Shown in pieces: positions 19,433 through 30,258 of a stretch of DNA of 64,000 bases. This DNA is from Capsulimonadaceae bacterium (lineage in GTDB: Bacteria > Armatimonadota > Armatimonadia > Armatimonadales > Capsulimonadaceae), in the NCBI GenBank assembly GCA_965215505.1, contig OZ244065.1:4320001-4384000 (forward strand), written 5' to 3'. How positions within the stretch are numbered: position 1 is the stretch's first letter; the number at the start of each line of letters is the position of its first letter. Position numbers and translations under genes: made by a program. The notes under the pieces are model-generated. The model was given only the letters and a program-made list of their open reading frames with translations. It was not told the DNA's origin and did not search any database.

Positions 19433-20986
19433 ATGCCCGCCGGGCCACTGATCGGAATTGATATCGGGTCGCAGCAGATCAAGATCGCCGAGTTGCGCCC
19501 CGGCAAGACCGGGCTGACCGTCACCGCCCTCGGCCTCGGGCCGACTCCGGCCGGCGTCGTCCAGAACAGCATCATCACCGACCCCGCCGCCATGGGGGCC
19601 GCCATCAAGAGCCTCATGCGCGAGAGCGGCATCACCATCAAGCGCGCCGTCGGCTGCATCACCGGCCAGAACGCCGTCGTCATCCGCATCATCGAAGTCC
19701 CGCGTATGACCGACGCCGAGCTGAAAGAAACCATGAAGTGGGAGGTCGAGCGGCACGTCCCGTTCGCGCCCTCCGAGACCGTCCTGGACTACCAGCCGCT
19801 CGTCCCGCGCACGGCTGAGGCCGCCAGTGGCCCCAACATGGAGGTGCTGCTCGCCGTCGCACAGCAGGACGCCGTTTCCAACTACATTGACACCCTGTTC
19901 GCGGCGGGCCTCGACCCCGTCGCCATTGACATCGAGCCGCTGGCGATCTCGCGGGCCATCCTGGACCTCCAGAACGGCGTCCCCGTCGCCCGGCCCCAGG
20001 TGCCGTTCGGTGAGCCGGCCTTCGCCGACGGCCCCGAAGAGACGGTCGCCATCGTCAACATCGGTGCGGCCAACACCGACATCGCCATCTTCCAGGGCGG
20101 CCAGCTCACCTTCCCCCGCTCCCTGCCCCTCGCCGGGGACAGCCTGACGCGCGCCATCGCCGAGGCGATGCAGTACACCATGGAACAGGCCGAGCGCGTC
20201 AAGCGCGACTACGCCGTCGTCCAGCTCGACCGCATGGCCGTTTACACCGGCACCGCCTACGAGGAGGGCTACGAGACGCCGCAGTTCCAGGATGAGGACA
20301 ACTTCAATCTCGGCGACGACAACCCGTTCGACCTCGGCGGGCAGAGCGCCGAATTCGGCAACGCCTTCGGCACCCCCTTCGGCGGAGCCTCCGATGCGCC
20401 CCTCGGCGGCACCGCCTTCGGCGGCGGTCCTGCCTTCGACGACCAGGAGCGGACTCAGCCCATCGAGCGGCGCACGCTCAATCTCGCCCGGCCCGCGACC
20501 TCCGACGCGCCCCCCGCCTTCATGCCGCCCACCGACGATGCCGGGTTTGGGATGGCGGGTGCGGGCGGCGGCCCGGACGAGTCCAAGCTGCGTGACGACA
20601 TCTTCGAAGCCATCGCGCCCGTCCTGGGCGAGCTGGCCTCCGAGATCCGGCGCTCCTTCGACTACTACCGCAGCCGGGGCGCGCAGGTGTCCATTGACCG
20701 TGTGCTGCTGACCGGCGGCAGTGCTGGCCTGGCGAACCTCGCCGCCTTCCTCCAGAACGAGCTGCAAGCGCCGGTCGCCGTCGCCAGCGCGCTCACCGCC
20801 CTCCCGGTCACGTCCAAGCACTTCGACCCGTCCTACCTGCCGACCATCGGACCCGCCTTCACCATCGCCGTCGGCCTGGCCGCGCGGGACGTCGTCTTCG
20901 GCGCGAACCCGATGCCCAAGAAGCCCAAGCCGGTCAAGGCGGCCAAAGTGGCTGCCGGATCGGTCACGGCCCCCCCGGCTTCCTAA
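19433..20986 (+). CDS. pilM: type IV pilus assembly protein PilM
   Basis: IGIDIGSQQIKIAEL, WEVERHVPF..LDYQ, VNIGA..T, EIRRSFDYY, LTGGSA, IAVGLAAR; contains an acidic insertion. Confidence 0.93.
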   Translation: MPAGPLIGIDIGSQQIKIAELRPGKTGLTVTALGLGPTPAGVVQNSIITDPAAMGAAIKSLMRESGITIKRAVGCITGQNAVVIRIIEVPRMTDAELKETMKWEVERHVPFAPSETVLDYQPLVPRTAEAASGPNMEVLLAVAQQDAVSNYIDTLFAAGLDPVAIDIEPLAISRAILDLQNGVPVARPQVPFGEPAFADGPEETVAIVNIGAANTDIAIFQGGQLTFPRSLPLAGDSLTRAIAEAMQYTMEQAERVKRDYAVVQLDRMAVYTGTAYEEGYETPQFQDEDNFNLGDDNPFDLGGQSAEFGNAFGTPFGGASDAPLGGTAFGGGPAFDDQERTQPIERRTLNLARPATSDAPPAFMPPTDDAGFGMAGAGGGPDESKLRDDIFEAIAPVLGELASEIRRSFDYYRSRGAQVSIDRVLLTGGSAGLANLAAFLQNELQAPVAVASALTALPVTSKHFDPSYLPTIGPAFTIAVGLAARDVVFGANPMPKKPKPVKAAKVAAGSVTAPPAS

Positions 20987-21049: not shown

Positions 21050-22204
21050 ATGCTCCGAATCAACCTGCTGCCCCCCTATGTGACGCAGAGGCGTCTTACC
21101 AAGCGCCTCATACCGGTGTTCGCCCTGCTGCTGCTGGCGTGCATCGCTCTGCCCCTCTTCCTGTATGCCAACATGAAGGCGCACCTGAACGACATAACGC
21201 AGCAGGCGGAGGCGGACGAGACGGCCAAGGCCGCCAATGACGCCCTGGATGCCCAAGCCGCCAGCACGACGGCGAAAGTGCAGCCCATCCTGGACAAAGT
21301 GAACTTCGTTGACGGGGTCCACAAGTACAACCGTGACCAGGTCACCACGCTCGTCGCCGTCGCGAACCAAAGCCCCAAGAAGAGCTTCATCTACAGCGGC
21401 ATGGCCCCCGGCGCGGGCTACTCGACCATGACCATCAACGCCTACTCGCCCAGCGTCGAGGAAGCCGGCCGCTACCTCGAGGCGATGTACCAGCAGCCCG
21501 CCTTCACCTCGGTCGCCGTGGACAAGATCCCCGGCTACCCCGACAATGTCCAGCACCGGTGGTATCTCGGCCCGATCAAGCCTCAGTACATGGTGTTCGC
21601 CGACGGCGCTTCGGCGTCCGGCGGCGGTGCCGCCGCCGGCGGCTATCCCGGTGGCGGCGGCGGCGCTGCCACCGCCACGGCGGGCGGCTTCAATGCAGCC
21701 AGCCTCGCTCTGAACGGACCCAACAATATCCCGCCCGGCGTCGGCCCGCCCCCGCCTGAGCTGATCGGCGGCCTCGCCACGGGCGGCGGTGCCGCAAGCG
21801 GCGGCTATCCCGGCAGCGGCGGTGGCGGCGGTTACCCCGGCGGTGGGGGCGGAGCGCAGGCCGGTGGCGGCGGCTACAGCCCGAACTTCCTGCGAATCGC
21901 CCTGGCCGGCGTCAGCCCCTTCGCCACCCCTGACGTGATCGCGCGCATTCTGAGGAACAAGATGCGTCAGGTCCACATGGTGACCATCCCCAAGGGCTTC
22001 AACGTCACCGTGACGGCGGGCATCAACAAGCCTTACGCCCCGCTGACCGCACCGACGCCCCCCGGCGGCGGACCGGCGGCGGGCGGTGCGCCGGGCGGCT
22101 TCGGCGGCGGTGCAGGCGCTTACCCCGGCGGCGGCGGTGCGCCCGGCGGCTACCCCGGTGGGGGTGCCCCCGGCGGCTATCCCGGAGGCGCGGCGTCAGG
22201 CTGA
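21050..22204 (+). CDS. pilN: PilN-like alignment subunit with GGYPGG tracts
   Basis: N-terminal RINLLP motif plus TM plus coiled coil, directly after pilM. Confidence 0.85.
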   Translation: MLRINLLPPYVTQRRLTKRLIPVFALLLLACIALPLFLYANMKAHLNDITQQAEADETAKAANDALDAQAASTTAKVQPILDKVNFVDGVHKYNRDQVTTLVAVANQSPKKSFIYSGMAPGAGYSTMTINAYSPSVEEAGRYLEAMYQQPAFTSVAVDKIPGYPDNVQHRWYLGPIKPQYMVFADGASASGGGAAAGGYPGGGGGAATATAGGFNAASLALNGPNNIPPGVGPPPPELIGGLATGGGAASGGYPGSGGGGGYPGGGGGAQAGGGGYSPNFLRIALAGVSPFATPDVIARILRNKMRQVHMVTIPKGFNVTVTAGINKPYAPLTAPTPPGGGPAAGGAPGGFGGGAGAYPGGGGAPGGYPGGGAPGGYPGGAASG

Positions 22205-22220: not shown

Positions 22221-23054
22221 ATGAAAACAGCGCGCCTCAGTCCCGTCGTCGTCGCCGCCGTCGGCACTGTACTATCCCTCCTGGCGATCGCCCTGATCTT
22301 CTTCCTGATGATCAAGCCGACGCAGGACGACACCGTGACCCAGCAGGCACGTCTTGACGCCGCCGCCCCCGGCACCGACCCGGAAGATCGGGAAGCAGGG
22401 CTTGCCCGGAACAAGAAGACGGCCCAGGCCAAACTCGCCCAGGCCAAGGTCAATGTGCAGAAAACGCAGATGCAGTGGGCACAGGTCGAAGCCGCAATCA
22501 TGCCTCCGTTCGACGTGAGCAACCGCCGCAAAGCGTTCCGGCAGCTCACCTATGAGCTGACGCACAACCTCGCGCCCGATCTACAGAAGCAGCTCACGGC
22601 CGGGGGCGTCACCTCGTCCACGAGGTTCGCACTGCCGCCGCCGCCCACCAGTCCGAACGACCCGATGATCCGGCCCGGCGTGATCGAGATCCCGCTCGGC
22701 ACGGTCACCGTCAACGGCGACTTCCGGCACATCCTGGCGAACTTCAACGACTGGCAGTATTTCAACCGCCTGGTCAAAGTAGACGGCCTGACCTTGACGG
22801 GCAACAGCCCGTACATGCAGGGGAGCTACACCGCGACGCTGTACATCTTCCCACAGGGTGACACCAATCCCGAGCCGCCCCTCGCCAAAGCGGGCGGGGC
22901 CGGCGGAGCCGGCGCACCCGGTGGCGGCGGCAGCTATCCCGGCGGCGGCGGCGGCGGCAGCTATCCCGGCGGCGGAGGCCCCCCCCCCGGTGCTGGAGGC
23001 CCTGGCGGCTACCCCGGCGGCGGTGGCCCCGGAGCCTACCCCGGCGGCCACTGA
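22221..23054 (+). CDS. pilO: PilO-like subunit with C-terminal YPGG tract
   Basis: TM plus coiled coil; IEIPLGTVTVNGDFRHILANF..FNRLVKVDGLTL PilO/GspM-like; AAGGAG RBS. Confidence 0.8.
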   Translation: MKTARLSPVVVAAVGTVLSLLAIALIFFLMIKPTQDDTVTQQARLDAAAPGTDPEDREAGLARNKKTAQAKLAQAKVNVQKTQMQWAQVEAAIMPPFDVSNRRKAFRQLTYELTHNLAPDLQKQLTAGGVTSSTRFALPPPPTSPNDPMIRPGVIEIPLGTVTVNGDFRHILANFNDWQYFNRLVKVDGLTLTGNSPYMQGSYTATLYIFPQGDTNPEPPLAKAGGAGGAGAPGGGGSYPGGGGGGSYPGGGGPPPGAGGPGGYPGGGGPGAYPGGH

Positions 23055-24204: not shown

Positions 24205-24957
24205 ATGAACAGGTCTATTTTCTCTCTCCTCGTTCCCGTCCTTCTGGCTGGGGGCGGCCTGGCGGCACGGGCACAGACCGGGGCAGATTCCAAGCCGGTC
24301 ACGCTCAACGTCTCGCAGGTCCCCATACAGACGGTCCTGAAGACGCTTTTCAACGGCGCTGGCGTCCGCAGCTTCGTGATAGACGCGGACGTCCCGCGCA
24401 CGGCACTCGTCGGCTCGATCAGCCTGAGCGGCGTTCCGTTCTCGGTCGCGCTCAAGCAGGTCCTGGGGGCGGTCAGCCCGCCCTTGGTCGCCGAACTCCA
24501 GGACGGCATTTACCACGTCCGAACTAGTGCGTCCGCGCCGCCGGACTTTGGGCCGCAGGCTGGTTTTCCCCCGGCCGATGCCGGACAGAACAACATCTAC
24601 AAGATTCGCATCAGGCACTATGATGCGGGCATGATTGCGGACGCCCTGACCCGCCGCGGAGGCATCATCCAGCTGCCGCCGAACTTCGTCATTCCGTCGA
24701 GCGCGAGCGTGGCGGGTGGGCCGACCGGCCCGAACATAACGACGGTGGGCGCGGCGGCCGGCCAGCCCCCGGCGGCTCCAAACGGCGGCGGGCTTCAGAA
24801 CGGCACGGCGACCGGCGCGAACGTCCTGCCGCCCGGCGTCAAGCGCATCTTCATCCTCGCGAGTGACAACTCTCTGGTGGTCGAGGCCACCGCCCAGGGC
24901 TACGAAAACCTGACCGACGAGCGCCTGCTCTCCGGCGGGTACACGCCAGTCTATTAA
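24205..24957 (+). CDS. secretin N-domain paralog without beta-barrel (STN/N0-like plus N3-like)
   Basis: Signal peptide; KPVTLNVSQVPIQTVLKTLF; LPPGVKRIFILASDNSLVVEATAQGYENL aligns with PilQ LPDGVTRIFALQSNNSLLVQATVDGYNTV. Confidence 0.75.
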   Translation: MNRSIFSLLVPVLLAGGGLAARAQTGADSKPVTLNVSQVPIQTVLKTLFNGAGVRSFVIDADVPRTALVGSISLSGVPFSVALKQVLGAVSPPLVAELQDGIYHVRTSASAPPDFGPQAGFPPADAGQNNIYKIRIRHYDAGMIADALTRRGGIIQLPPNFVIPSSASVAGGPTGPNITTVGAAAGQPPAAPNGGGLQNGTATGANVLPPGVKRIFILASDNSLVVEATAQGYENLTDERLLSGGYTPVY

Positions 24958-25000: not shown

Positions 25001-25816
25001 ATGAAAATCCGATACACGCGACGTCATGCGGCCCTCGCCCTTGGTGCCCTGGCCCTGCTCGGCGGCTCGGTCGTGGCCACCCCCGCACGGGCGCAGGACG
25101 CCAGCGCGGCGTCCGACAAGCCCATCACGCTGAACCTCCAGAACGTCCCCATCCAGACCGCCCTGAAGCTGCTGTTCAACGCTGCGGGCATCCACAACTA
25201 CACCATCGCTTCGGACGTACAGGGGACCGCCAACATTAACAGCGCCAATGTTCCCTTTACGATCGCCCTGACTAACCTGCTGAACTCGGTCGGCGCGGCC
25301 TTCACCGTCGAGAACGGCAGCTACAACGTCGCCATCAAGCGGCCCACGCCGGCACCCCCCGTGGTCGTCACCCCGCAGCCGAACGGGAACACGATCGTGG
25401 GCGGCAGCCAGGACTCGACGGCCAGCACGGCGGATCAGCCCAAGCGCTTCTACCCGATTCCGGTCAACAAGTACGACGCCTACTACCTTGCCCTCCTGCT
25501 CGGCTCGCAGGGCCTCGTCCGCGTTGACGTCAACGGCATCCTGCCCTCCCAGTTCAGCCAGGCCACCGGGCAGGGCCAGGGCGGTCAGGGCGGCCCCGCC
25601 GGCGGCATCACCTCGGTCGGTGGCCAGGGCGGTCGCGGCGGCGGCTTCGGCGGCGGTGGCGGCTACGGCGGTGGCGGCGGCGGCTTCGGCAGCGGCGGCG
25701 GTGCCCGCGGCAGCGTCGGCGGCGGCGGCGGCGGCTTCGGCGGCTTTGCCATCATCAACCCCGCCGGTTCGCAGAACACAAGCCCGCAGGGCACGCCCCC
25801 CCAGGGCACGAACTAA
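25001..25816 (+). CDS. second STN/N0-like secretin N-domain paralog with Gly-rich tail
   Basis: Signal peptide; KPITLNLQNVPIQTALKLLF is paralogous to the preceding gene; FYPIPVNKYDAYYLALLL resembles the N3 start. Confidence 0.72.
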   Translation: MKIRYTRRHAALALGALALLGGSVVATPARAQDASAASDKPITLNLQNVPIQTALKLLFNAAGIHNYTIASDVQGTANINSANVPFTIALTNLLNSVGAAFTVENGSYNVAIKRPTPAPPVVVTPQPNGNTIVGGSQDSTASTADQPKRFYPIPVNKYDAYYLALLLGSQGLVRVDVNGILPSQFSQATGQGQGGQGGPAGGITSVGGQGGRGGGFGGGGGYGGGGGGFGSGGGARGSVGGGGGGFGGFAIINPAGSQNTSPQGTPPQGTN

Positions 25817-26006: not shown

Positions 26007-27941
26007 ATGGGTTTATATCGAAGACGATCGGGCTTAACCGCCGCGTGCGGCCTGCTGGCTCTGGCGGGGCTGGCGTCCGCCGCCGCCCCGGCCCGGAGCG
26101 CCGAGGACGCCCCCCCCACGGCGAACGGCCGTGGGATCAGCATGGACGTGGCCGGTGCCGACATGCACACAGTCGTCCACATGCTGGAGCAGCAGGCCCA
26201 TGTGGATGCCCTCGTCCATGATGGCGACAAGCCGTTCAAGCCCATCAATCTCCATCTGGATGAGGCGTCCCTGCCGAAAGCGCTGAGGACCATCGCGGCC
26301 AGTGCGGGCGCGAAAGTCAGCAAGAATGAGGACGGGGTCTACGTCTTCGAGCCTCTCACCGCCGACAGTCCGGCCGCCCCGGCAAGCCCTGCACCCGCCG
26401 TCCAGGCCCCCGCCGCGCCGCAGCAACCCGCCGACAACCGCCCCGAGGCGCGCTACCCGTCTGGGTCGCTGCACTGGCAGTCCATCGTCCTCCAGCATGC
26501 CGTCCCGAATGACATCCTGAGGATCATGCACTGGGACCAGGACCTCGTCGAACTCGACCCCTTCAAGCCCGTCGAGGCCCCCCAGCAGCGCCCCAACGTG
26601 TCCTCATTCGGCGCGAACACGATTCTCCCGTCCAGCCTCGCCGGTCTCGGCGGCAACGGCTTCCCGAACAACAACTACAATAACGGCGGCTACCAGAACG
26701 GTGGCTATAACAACGGCGGCTACCAGAATGGCGGCAACCCGTCCGTGCCGCTCGGCACCGGCAATGGTGGTCCCGCCGGCGCGAACTACGCGAACTCCGC
26801 CCACCGCAGCGCTGAACCCGGCTCCCCCGGCCAGGCCAACCAGTTCCCCGGCGGCGGCTTCGGCGGCGGCTTCGGCGGCGGCCAGTTCGGGGGTGGCGGC
26901 GGCCAGTTCGGCGGCGGCGGCCAGTTCGGGGGTGGCGGCGGCCAGTTCGGCGGCGGCGGTCAGTTCGGCGGCGGCGGTCAGTTCGGGGGTGGCGGCGGCC
27001 AGTTCGGCGGCGGCCAGTTCGGCGGCCAGGGTGGGCCGGGCGGGGCGGGCGGACGGGCCCAGCTTCCCGACGGTGTGACGCGCATCTTCGCCCTGCAAAG
27101 CAACAACTCCCTGCTGGTCCAGGCGACCGTGGATGGATACAACACGGTCAAAAACCTGGTCCGCATCCTCGACATCGCCCCGCGCCAGGTCCAGATCAAG
27201 GTCGAGTTCGTCACCGCCAGCGTCGTGGACGTGGATAACCTCGGCGTCAACTTCGACCTCGTGCCCTATCCGGGTCTGGAACTCGCCACGAACCAGGGCA
27301 GCAGCGCCATCAGCACGACGGCCGCGCCGACCTTCCTGCAATACGCCACCGGCAACATCGTCGCCCAGCTTTTCCAGACGCTCACCCGCACGCGCGGCAA
27401 GGTGGTCCAGGCGCCGATCATCACGACGACGAACAACGTGGCGGCCAGCATCAACGTGTTCACCCAGATCCCGTTCTTCACCTCCTCCAGCGTGGTCACG
27501 GGCGGTCTGAACAACAACACGGTTAACAACACGCAGGCCAACTTCATCACCCTCAACACGGGCCTGACGATTGCGCCGCGCATCAACAGCGACGACTCGG
27601 TCACGATGAACCTCTCGCCGACGATCACTGACGTCACCGGCCAGCCCGCCGTCGGCGGCATCCCGCCGACCGTCACCCAGAGCATCACCACCCTCCGCAC
27701 CGTCCGCAGCGGCGACACCATGGTCCTCGGCGGCCTGGTCCGCAAGCAGGAAACGACCTCGACCCAGCGCATCCCGATCCTCGCCGACATCCCGGTCTTG
27801 GGCGGCATCTTCCGCACCCGCAACAAGCAGATCAACGACACCGAGCTGCTGATCTTCGTCACGCCGACCATCATCGGCGACAGCAACGACAGCGCGACCG
27901 CCAATGCCAACGGCGGCCAGAGCGTTACCGTCACGCCGTAA
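26007..27941 (+). CDS. pilQ: outer-membrane secretin (PilQ/GspD family)
   Basis: LDIAPRQVQIKVEFV, APIITTTNN..A.I, GLTIAPRIN, VRSGDTMVLGGL, IPILADIPVLGGIFR..ELLIFVTPTII. Confidence 0.93.
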   Translation: MGLYRRRSGLTAACGLLALAGLASAAAPARSAEDAPPTANGRGISMDVAGADMHTVVHMLEQQAHVDALVHDGDKPFKPINLHLDEASLPKALRTIAASAGAKVSKNEDGVYVFEPLTADSPAAPASPAPAVQAPAAPQQPADNRPEARYPSGSLHWQSIVLQHAVPNDILRIMHWDQDLVELDPFKPVEAPQQRPNVSSFGANTILPSSLAGLGGNGFPNNNYNNGGYQNGGYNNGGYQNGGNPSVPLGTGNGGPAGANYANSAHRSAEPGSPGQANQFPGGGFGGGFGGGQFGGGGGQFGGGGQFGGGGGQFGGGGQFGGGGQFGGGGGQFGGGQFGGQGGPGGAGGRAQLPDGVTRIFALQSNNSLLVQATVDGYNTVKNLVRILDIAPRQVQIKVEFVTASVVDVDNLGVNFDLVPYPGLELATNQGSSAISTTAAPTFLQYATGNIVAQLFQTLTRTRGKVVQAPIITTTNNVAASINVFTQIPFFTSSSVVTGGLNNNTVNNTQANFITLNTGLTIAPRINSDDSVTMNLSPTITDVTGQPAVGGIPPTVTQSITTLRTVRSGDTMVLGGLVRKQETTSTQRIPILADIPVLGGIFRTRNKQINDTELLIFVTPTIIGDSNDSATANANGGQSVTVTP

Positions 27942-29291: not shown

Positions 29292-29570
29292 ATGACTGTG
29301 ACGCTGGAACTTTCCCCCGAAACCGAGGCAGACCTGCGCGAGCGTGCGGGAAAGTGCGGCCAGTCCGTTGCCGACTATCTGTTGACCTTGACCGTATTAA
29401 GTCTCTATCGTGACTTATCTTTATCTGAGAGGGAGAGGGACATCGTCAGAGAACGAATAGCAGACCGGCTCGCAGGCGATAAGGGGATGCTGCTAGCGGA
29501 CTACCAATCTGAGGTCGTGGCAAAGCGTGAGGCGCGTAAGCGGCAGCAAGAAGCCGAAACCGCCGCATGA
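29292..29570 (+). CDS. putative antitoxin-like small protein
   Basis: MTVTLELSPETEADLRERA..GQSVADYL ribbon-helix-helix-like N-terminus; resembles 41635 ORF; GAGGAG RBS. Confidence 0.6.
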   Translation: MTVTLELSPETEADLRERAGKCGQSVADYLLTLTVLSLYRDLSLSERERDIVRERIADRLAGDKGMLLADYQSEVVAKREARKRQQEAETAA

Positions 29571-29592
29571 GCGGAGGCATACATCCTTGACT

Positions 29593-30258
29593 ATGCCTGA
29601 CTTCTCGGGCGCGTTCTGGTTCTACGCGCAAGAGGCTCTGCAAACATGGGGCGGTCGTAGCGTCTCCGTTGAAGTCCGCGAGGTGGGCACACTCACTCTG
29701 ACCTCGGGCAAGATCGTTGCCTGTGATGGCCTGATTCCGAGCGACGAGCCGTTCACGCAAACAGTCACCCCTGGCTCCTACCCTGTCGTCTTGTGCCTGG
29801 TCAGCGGCGACAAAGGGTGGCCCATCATTGCCTGTGCCATGCTGCGCTTCAAAGACGAGATGCCGCGCACCTGGAAACTTGCGACGGTCGCCGGTCAGAG
29901 CGAGGTTCCTGACCGGAAGGGTGAGATTGTCGGCTATGGAGTAGACACCGGGGACGGATGCTTCGCTGACCTTGACGCGATGCGGGAGTTGATAAGTCTC
30001 CAGGAGCCATATGAGCGGTTCAGAGACGCGGTGACTAAGTCTCGCTCAGACTGGTTTGACTATAACCTGGACGTTGAACCGCCCACCAACATCATCACCT
30101 TTTCGTCCGGCGAGGGGGACGGGACTTATCCTTCTTATTTCGGCTACGACGCAGATGGCGATGCCCTTTGCCTTGCGACTGACTTTGGCATCATTGCGCC
30201 CCTGCCGGAGACACACACAGAAGCGCCGAGCAAGTATCAACTGAGGCTCGACCTTTGA
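29593..30258 (+). CDS. DUF4241 domain protein
   Basis: LTLTSGKIVACD..PGSYPV..YGVDTGDGCFAD..FSSGEGDGTYPSYFGYDADG..LATDF. Confidence 0.8.
   Translation: MPDFSGAFWFYAQEALQTWGGRSVSVEVREVGTLTLTSGKIVACDGLIPSDEPFTQTVTPGSYPVVLCLVSGDKGWPIIACAMLRFKDEMPRTWKLATVAGQSEVPDRKGEIVGYGVDTGDGCFADLDAMRELISLQEPYERFRDAVTKSRSDWFDYNLDVEPPTNIITFSSGEGDGTYPSYFGYDADGDALCLATDFGIIAPLPETHTEAPSKYQLRLDL

Follow-up and report, generated by a model that had tools for sequence, protein, structure and literature searches.

A predicted-disordered Phe-Gly repeat insert in the N3-type domain of an Armatimonadota pil-operon secretin, a candidate channel plug

The last gene of a pil operon in a Capsulimonadaceae bacterium (Armatimonadota) encodes a secretin whose N3-type domain is split by an insert of 165 residues, which is predicted to be disordered, ends in a Phe-Gly array, and occupies what modelling and alignment identify as the site of the variable N3 loop of other secretins. 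The gene lies in what we call the window, the whole stretch of 64,000 nucleotides that was analysed (positions 4,320,001-4,384,000 of contig OZ244065.1, assembly GCA_965215505.1), within a single-contig genome of 6.18 Mb with 66.5% guanine plus cytosine (GC); coordinates below are those of the window unless the genome is named. The insert is a conserved feature of the family, and similar arrays recur in neighbouring genes of the operon. Secretins are very wide outer-membrane pores, and the reading that we rank first, with a rough probability of 0.4 and by analogy with better-known systems, is that the insert would act as a cis-encoded plug or gasket below the gate that is soft, self-healing and displaceable.

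The 644-residue product has the features of the secretin family. It matches the Pfam model Secretin (PF00263) over residues 461-623 with 128.3 bits (cut-off 27.5), and it contains a double barrel, an N3-type domain directly before the barrel and an N0 domain, the two N domains being stated to occur in every secretin (PMC12114550). As expected for a domain whose first half precedes the insert, the match to Secretin_N (PF03958) lacks the start of the profile, covering positions 25-69 of 69 only (residues 336-394), and stays below threshold. We modelled the protein with AlphaFold2 from an alignment of 86 sequences, the window protein and 85 homologues chosen by hand among 120 listed matches, with fragments and near-duplicates removed. 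The model resembles 40 solved secretin chains (Foldseek, E ≤ 0.001; E values 8e-22 to 5e-14), including InvG, EpsD, GspD and PilQ (E ~1e-21) and also pIV, and its barrel and gate region look normal. In the same model about 165 residues separate helix 1 from strand 2 of the beta-alpha-beta-beta-alpha domain adjoining the barrel, in agreement with an earlier, sequence-only reading of this DNA that had placed an interruption of well over 100 residues in the N3-like domain of a secretin at 26640..27060, which corresponds to residues 212-352 of the open reading frame (ORF). The models for PilQ (TIGR02515, 132 bits, cut-off 284.35) and GspD (TIGR02517, 150.6 bits, cut-off 351.35) both match far below their cut-offs, so that neither decides the type of secretin, and the assignment to a type IV pilus is by operon context only.

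The insert has a mass of 15.1 kDa and consists of 67 Gly (41%), 17 Asn, 16 Gln, 13 Phe and 5 Tyr among its main residues; Asn and Gln together account for 20% and the aromatic residues (Phe/Tyr) for 11%, and with 5 charged residues (3%) it is nearly uncharged (Table 1). The string NNNYNNGGYQNGGYNNGGYQNGG occurs once and the QFGG unit eight times (starts at residues 293-337), both as the sequence-only reading had reported, while FGG is found ten times and FG 11 times within residues 181-356. In composition-preserving shuffles the FG count is 5.3 ± 1.7, with 6 of 10,000 shuffles reaching 11, and the rest of the secretin (479 residues) contains 14 Phe and not a single FG. The DNA that encodes the array is a tandem repeat with a period of 18/39/57 and 80-89% matches. 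The PSVPLGTG block inside the insert is a possible short docking motif.

Two other readings of the repeat were set aside. That it is an artefact of coding or belongs to another frame was rejected because the 86 homologues keep the secretin's reading frame, and the ORFs that overlap it on either strand are the Ala/Arg/Pro-rich shadows usually seen with GC-rich genes. Phase variation was dropped as every repeat unit is a multiple of three bases. Among public contigs from four runs of four studies, none spans 26902-26985, and the contigs break inside the array (26860-27005). The indels they show in the array are all in frame (+3, +27, -3 and +3), which hints at repeat-length polymorphism, the origin of these contigs being uncertain as at 90% likeness they may represent Gly-rich repeats of other organisms.

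On the evidence of the model and the alignment, the insert is a giant form of the variable N3 loop known from InvG, PulD and pIV, with query residue 355 aligning to InvG 264 and query residue 364 to PulD 313. The variable insertion of InvG (217-267) was first suggested to explain the periplasmic constriction; when the needle is present the loop leaves the lumen by threading out between N3 and N1, and parts of it become ordered in the open state. Loop 288-303 of PulD is unmodelled, and the corresponding study names N3 domain constriction sites in the channel (PMC6882859), while the N3 loop of pIV is disordered and directed at the pore centre. Like the insert, these loops lie between helix 1 and strand 2, are disordered and have been linked to the constriction or the pore centre, which upholds the premise of the sequence-only reading that some secretins have a disordered Ser/Gly-rich N3 loop facing the lumen. 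They differ from it in size and composition, being ~15-50 residues long and Ser/Gly-rich or mixed, whereas the insert has 165 residues (97-178 in the family) and a periodic hydrophobic-Gly array that is echoed in four further genes of the operon. ExeD, a secretin of a type II secretion system (T2SS), has a short Gly-rich stretch at the corresponding N3 site.

The insert is conserved well beyond the window. Measured between the columns of query residues 178 and 356, it spans 97-178 residues (median 133) in all 86 aligned sequences, of which the window protein has the longest, it is kept down to ~30% overall identity, and at least four Phe fall within it in 84 of the 86. The inserts share one plan, in which a variable Asn/Gln/Tyr-rich part is followed by a PSVP.G.G block, an A.QF motif and a Gly-rich array that ends at the 'LP.G' of strand 2. 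The unit of the array changes with lineage (QFGGGG, FNGGG, NPFGGGG, FPGGG, FGQGG, MGGG, LGGGG, IGGG; several homologues have a GGFGGMGGYGG-like sequence) and both unit and length turn over fast, even in an 80%-identical homologue, while the pattern stays: the array always adjoins strand 2, and a hydrophobic residue every few Gly persists. The homologues carry names from Capsulimonas, Chthonomonadales, Fimbriimonadales and metagenome-assembled genomes of Armatimonadota, which puts the organism itself in this phylum. In a further search of 1.84 billion cluster representatives, the query was limited to residues 356-644 to keep the repeat from biasing the result, and 36,059 matches at E ≤ 0.001 were obtained. 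Among the best 150 representatives, 120 had enough sequence before the match to score the 70 residues preceding strand 2, and these are at least 35% Gly in 81 of the 120 and contain at least three hydrophobic-Gly units in 75.

The same picture is obtained by locus. We took 39 Armatimonadota-type loci, one of which has no recognisable secretin ORF and four of which are truncated. In the 34 that could be scored, a Gly window at an equal distance from the secretin's C-terminus holds at least three aromatics in 23 and at least four hydrophobics in 31, and a Gly window with at least three aromatics was found at that position in none of 39 loci of other phyla, one Methylococcaceae secretin having a Ser/Gly loop there. 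Together these comparisons indicate that the disordered insert is a family character and that hydrophobic residues spaced periodically among Gly are common, with Phe itself kept only among closer relatives.

Similar arrays are concentrated in the operon to which the secretin belongs. We scanned the genome in all six frames for stop-to-stop ORFs of at least 100 residues in which some stretch of 40 residues holds 20 or more Gly and 4 or more aromatics, and found only 15 such ORFs in 6.18 Mb, five of which lie in one pil gene run (PilN-like, PilO-like, PilP-like, 25001..25816 and the secretin). The four neighbours, which the sequence-only reading had missed, speak for a machine-wide role and not for pore filling alone. 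The other ten ORFs are mostly signal-peptide proteins with Gly-rich linkers; they also include the tail of an RNA-binding protein and an ORF that is evidently a shadow. Their linker or tail arrays are of the GGYPGGGG/GGFGGPGG type (for example 2056883-2057776 on the minus strand and 4784842-4786341 and 4896617-4897654 on the plus strand, genome coordinates), which may be a lineage habit of exported proteins. Six genes of the genome encode secretin domains (including loci L079-L084) and the scan picks up only the one in the window, a specificity that we count in favour of the plug. A T2SS-like paralogue with several N domains (L079, at ~4.85 Mb) has a ~90-residue Ser/Gly/Asn/Gln loop with few Phe at the corresponding N3 site, and a short secretin (L082) has ~40 ordinary residues there. 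The former also has a Met/Pro/Gly-rich stretch (GGMPGGMPPGGMP...) near its N-terminus.

The gene directly upstream of the secretin (25001..25816) encodes what we refer to as its partner, for which AlphaFold2 gives a confident N0 domain (residues 41-112, predicted local distance difference test (pLDDT) score ~95) followed by a predicted-disordered tail (residues 186-271, pLDDT < 50). An array-bearing gene is found in this place in 22 of the 24 related loci with enough flanking sequence. Both the secretin and the partner carry arrays in 14 of the 24, the secretin alone in 0, the partner alone in 8 and neither in 2, so that the partner array is the better conserved of the two (22/24 versus 14/24). 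Across the family the partner arrays span 60-120 residues, are built of Phe/Tyr/Trp/Met-Gly and mostly end in ...GGGRGGF, and in 9 of the 22 loci whose upstream sequence extends to 4 kb or more, further array-bearing ORFs are present. In a protein atlas the partner falls in Armatimonadota clusters of ~240-residue STN-domain proteins; the atlas also gives leads to short barrel-less Secretin_N/STN proteins in other phyla. By its layout the partner resembles a secretin gene cut off within the N3 insert. It is a paralogue (E 4e-18) of the product of 24205..24957, which in turn matches the secretin in its strand-strand-helix part (E 9e-8) and its N-terminal part (E 2e-4), has an N domain split by a ~70-residue Gly-rich insert without Phe, and might form or join a periplasmic ring below the secretin.

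The locus as a whole is a type IV pilus operon of the pilMNOPQ type with the secretin gene last. Neither Pfam nor NCBIfam gave a match for the PilN-like and PilO-like products, the former beginning with 'INLLP', which we take to be the PilN motif. The PilP-like product has no Pfam match and reaches 31.2 bits (E 3.6e-7) with the NCBIfam model pilP_fam (TIGR03021), just below its cut-off of 34.65. Downstream, the otherwise typical pilQ-aro run contains a DUF4241 gene (29527..30258, plus strand) between aroC and aroK.

Table 1. Features of the pil operon and of the secretin in the window. Residue numbers are those of the secretin; AF2, AlphaFold2.
Feature	Position	Strand	Evidence and remarks
PilM	19433..20986	+	PF11104 E 1.3e-50; TIGR01175 212.8 bits (cut-off 133)
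PilN-like, membrane-anchored	21050..22204	+	By position and N-terminal 'INLLP'; internal and C-terminal YPGGGG arrays
PilO-like, membrane-anchored	22224..23054	+	By position only; C-terminal SYPGGGG array
PilP-like, 338 aa	23175..24191	+	N-terminal membrane helix, beta-rich domain, C-terminal YPGGGG/FGGGG array
Barrel-less paralogue of the secretin N-terminal half, 250 aa	24205..24957	+	Signal peptide, N0-like domain, complete split N domain
Partner gene, 271 aa	25001..25816	+	Signal peptide, N0-like domain, one strand-helix, Gly/Phe/Tyr array nearly to the C-terminus; weak STN match
Secretin gene, 644 aa	26007..27941	+	Signal peptide, N0-like domain, Pro/Ala linker, split N3-type domain, secretin barrel; Pfam, AF2, Foldseek
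N0/STN-like domain, residues 44-116	26136..26354	+	AF2 pLDDT 90-97, strands and helices; Foldseek match to Neisseria PilQ N0 domain 4ar0
N3-type domain, first half: strand 156-161, helix 167-173	26472..26525	+	AF2; conserved columns, e.g. L162, P167
Disordered insert (predicted), residues 189-353, 165 aa	26571..27065	+	AF2 pLDDT < 50 for residues 192-348
Asn/Tyr/Gly/Gln-rich part NNNYNNGGYQNGGYNNGGYQNGG, residues 221-243	26667..26735	+	Single occurrence; poorly conserved (low column occupancy); DNA tandem repeat, period 15/30
Conserved block PSVPLGTG within the insert, residues 245-252	26739..26762	+	P248 at least 90% conserved; seen in distant homologues too
Conserved A-N-Q-F immediately before the array, residues 277-280	26835..26846	+	A, Q and F each at least 70% conserved
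Phe-Gly array, residues 285-340	26859..27026	+	Two FGGG, then eight QFGG(G)(G)(G); 4-7 residues between aromatics
N3-type domain, second half: strands 357-363 and 368-373, helix 375-388	27075..27170	+	Secretin_N match, AF2
Secretin double-barrel domain, residues 394-623	27186..27875	+	Pfam, AF2, Foldseek
aroC, DUF4241 gene, aroK, aroB	downstream of secretin		Pfam

Outside the Armatimonadota we looked at two samples of Verrucomicrobiota secretins. The 40 secretin ORFs with the best Pfam Secretin matches in 61+2 genomes contain no comparable repeat array; one of them (L090) reaches the aromatic threshold of at least three aromatics in a 40-residue window containing at least 12 Gly, with a stretch unlike the repeat array of the window secretin. 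In the second sample, the 30 sequences from 81 genomes that best match the model for Amuc_1098-type pilus secretins, the scan picked out five. Of these, L141 is probably an Arg/Gly ORF read in the wrong frame, and the other four have Gly/Phe stretches. In three of the four (L143, L147 and L151) the stretches, such as GGGDPFGGDPFGG, are 30-40 residues long and are found in the last N-like domain, where by eye they lie between strand 1 and helix 1 and not between helix 1 and strand 2.

Secretin rings contain 12-15 subunits, a literature stoichiometry that we assume for the window secretin. The resulting 12-15 loops would amount to 182-227 kDa, 156-195 Phe and a computed dry volume of 220-275 nm3, and the expectation of the sequence-only reading of on the order of a hundred Phe in the ring thus holds. 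The lumen of the N3 ring offers 113-177 nm3 (diameter of 6-7.5 nm from the literature, height of 4 nm assumed), and loops confined to an assumed 10-nm vestibule would reach ~475-850 mg/ml. We count a mass sufficient to fill the vestibule in favour of the plug. As the volume of the loops exceeds that of the ring lumen, they cannot share the N3 ring with a pilus, and since they overfill the ring they must spill below it and be displaceable, as the InvG loop is. We infer the following mechanism. The loops of a ring would cohere through their hydrophobic residues, and may in addition adhere to the arrays of the N0-domain partner encoded upstream and to the tails of the PilN/O/P-like proteins. Below the gate the cohered arrays would make up a plug or gasket, soft and self-healing, that limits leakage through a resting or not-yet-docked channel, and a passing pilus would push it aside, compress it, or thread the loops out between the N0 and N3 rings.

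A displaceable luminal mass has been seen for SlkA/SlkB, which is why we rank the soft plug first. According to the Slk study of 2026, the gate of Pseudomonas aeruginosa PilQ alone leaks, the periplasmic proteins SlkA/SlkB plug its lumen and block antibiotic influx, and they leave the lumen when the inner-membrane complex docks; Slk homologues are mainly gamma-proteobacterial, and other plug types are expected in bacteria without Slk (PMC13392014). What the insert would share with SlkA/SlkB as described there is the proposed job, that of a mobile, displaceable luminal mass which backs a leaky gate before the pilus machine engages. SlkA/SlkB are separate periplasmic proteins, whereas the candidate plug of the window is a low-complexity loop within the secretin chain, and the two are likened by proposed function alone.

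The sequence-only reading had gone further and compared the insert with the FG-nucleoporin permeability barrier, a comparison that holds for composition and fails in several other respects. Cohesive FG domains have few charges and Asn/Gln-rich spacers and need their hydrophobics for gelation, their tight gels exceed ~200 mg/ml, and they span several hundred residues with up to 50 motifs and variable polar spacers (PMC3553378). Set against this account, the insert shares repeated Phe-Gly, predicted disorder, the low share of charged residues (3%), 20% Asn/Gln and anchorage to the wall of a transport channel, and its local concentration would exceed the value of ~200 mg/ml. It does not fit the definition given there in length (165 residues), motif number (11 FG) or spacers, which are 4-7 residues of almost pure Gly, and unlike nucleoporin FG domains it has no FxFG or GLFG motifs. 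The likeness is thus one of composition and setting only, without homology. We know of no transport receptor that would 'melt' through the array. Glycine-rich elastomeric or 'glycine loop' proteins such as abductin and the tails of keratin and loricrin also have Gly runs punctuated by Phe, Tyr or Met; they are eukaryotic structural materials, unrelated by descent, and serve as a lead for material properties only. In full-text literature, with subscription journals mostly outside the coverage, no publication came up that connects bacterial secretins with low-complexity loops of the Phe-Gly or glycine-rich kind. The size of the loop, its periodic hydrophobic-Gly array, the phylum-wide conservation, the echo in four machine components and the dedicated array-bearing partner all appear undescribed.

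Several points weigh against a plug. The placement of the loop in the lumen is extrapolated from the short loops of distant secretins, and that of InvG moves out between N3 and N1 once the needle is in place. A 6-7-nm pilus is already described as a tight fit in Vibrio PilQ, and to accommodate the loops around a 6-nm pilus an annulus ~16 nm tall would be needed (heights assumed). With a normal barrel and gate region, the channel has no obvious need of a second seal. In the family as a whole Phe is not conserved: the conservation of Phe in orthologs that had been proposed as a test of the gel is found among the close relatives described above, whereas at least three aromatic-Gly units occur in only 42 of the 120 wider representatives and at least three Phe in 61. 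Elsewhere in the family Phe is replaced by Met, Leu, Ile or Tyr, or by polar Thr/Pro-rich loops, and some representatives have Thr/Pro/Asn-rich loops without any array. In 8 of the 24 related loci the partner has an array and the secretin has no aromatic one, the tails of the PilN/O/P-like proteins are not expected in the secretin lumen, which means that the arrays they share with it may be there for a different reason, and in the ten other proteins, most of them exported, similar arrays look like linkers.

If the arrays act elsewhere, those of the loop, the partner and the PilN/O/P-like tails could bind each other outside the lumen and form an elastic, length-adaptable link between this short secretin, which has N0 and N3 only, and the inner-membrane alignment complex or the cell wall. 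The shared arrays and the better-conserved partner array fit such a tether or mesh nearly as well as they fit the plug: all five periplasmic components have arrays, the partner keeps its own in the 8 loci whose secretin has no aromatic array, additional array-bearing ORFs occur upstream in some loci, and the InvG loop is able to pass outward between ring domains. Many PilQ, not all, have N-terminal wall-binding AMIN domains. Neither an AMIN domain nor another wall-binding domain was found in the window secretin with Pfam (E up to 0.01). The Tyr share of the aromatics is weakly correlated between loop and partner tail (Spearman 0.47, p 0.024, n 23, uncorrected for kinship), but as this may reflect only shared genome composition and kinship we do not rely on it. 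The literature places the anchor points of the insert at a channel-facing site, a tether of this kind is not known to us from any type IV pilus machine, and none was found in the full-text literature within the coverage given above; we consider the tether possible, if doubtful. A further alternative is that the insert is a tolerated low-complexity expansion, produced in a GC-rich genome when GGC-rich repeats slipped within a surface loop that permits it, and is a flexible spacer with neither a barrier nor a binding role. In favour of this are the high GC of the genome, the recent tandem repeat in the DNA, the fast turnover of length and unit, the arrays in ten other proteins and the family loops without arrays, and loci lacking the secretin array tend to lower GC (L006, L025, L031 and L032, 0.52-0.57). 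Slippage alone does not readily explain why every aligned homologue, down to ~30% identity, has an insert of 97 residues or more, nor an array that always abuts strand 2 and retains its hydrophobic spacing while the units change, the conserved PSVP and ANQF blocks, one third of the genome's arrays lying in one operon, and arrays that persist at a locus GC of ~0.50 with mixed Gly codons (L023, L033). We hold it, too, to be more doubtful than probable.

Least likely, and in our view very improbable, is that the insert becomes ordered in the oligomer, either as an inner layer or 'curtain' below the gate or as a glycine-based fold that prediction on a monomer would miss. The N3 beta-hairpin of BfpB has been proposed to form a 'curtain' that lines the pilus path, and the N3 extensions of BfpB, InvG and MxiD make an ordered layer under the gate (PMC12114550). 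Like the insert these hairpins are N3-domain extensions below the gate, but they are ordered and lie elsewhere in the domain, whereas the insert is predicted to be disordered and is repetitive. The partial ordering of the InvG variable loop in the open state, and the PSVP..G.G and ANQF blocks, which suggest specific contacts, are consistent with some ordering; the pLDDT below 50 across residues 192-348 with 86 sequences, the extreme composition and the variable number and type of repeats are hard to square with a fixed fold. A bolder extension of the plug, which we judge unlikely, would make the N3 loop, the N0-domain partner and the PilN/O/P-like tails one cohesive Gly/aromatic meshwork that is both a self-healing permeability seal and a sliding gasket around the pilus. 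Such a meshwork would be an independently evolved bacterial counterpart of the nuclear-pore FG barrier and a cis-encoded alternative to Slk, with the similar Verrucomicrobia loops as a recurrent solution.

Taken as a whole, the pore-filling gel put forward by the sequence-only reading is partly supported, in that its anatomical premises hold while the function as a gel or plug is one that we infer. It is plausible, and needs amending in that the mass would have to be displaceable and the whole periplasmic machine involved. The subject bears on how wide secretin pores stay tight. A long, conserved, cohesive-looking loop at the channel-facing N3 site is a concrete candidate for the type of plug predicted by the Slk authors (PMC13392014), and the matching arrays on other periplasmic parts of the machine strengthen its candidacy. 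If the plug is real, the principle of a barrier made of disordered hydrophobic stickers would extend from nuclear pores to a machine of the bacterial envelope. If it is not, the locus still provides a clear case from nature in which one multiprotein machine has kept low-complexity arrays phylum-wide.

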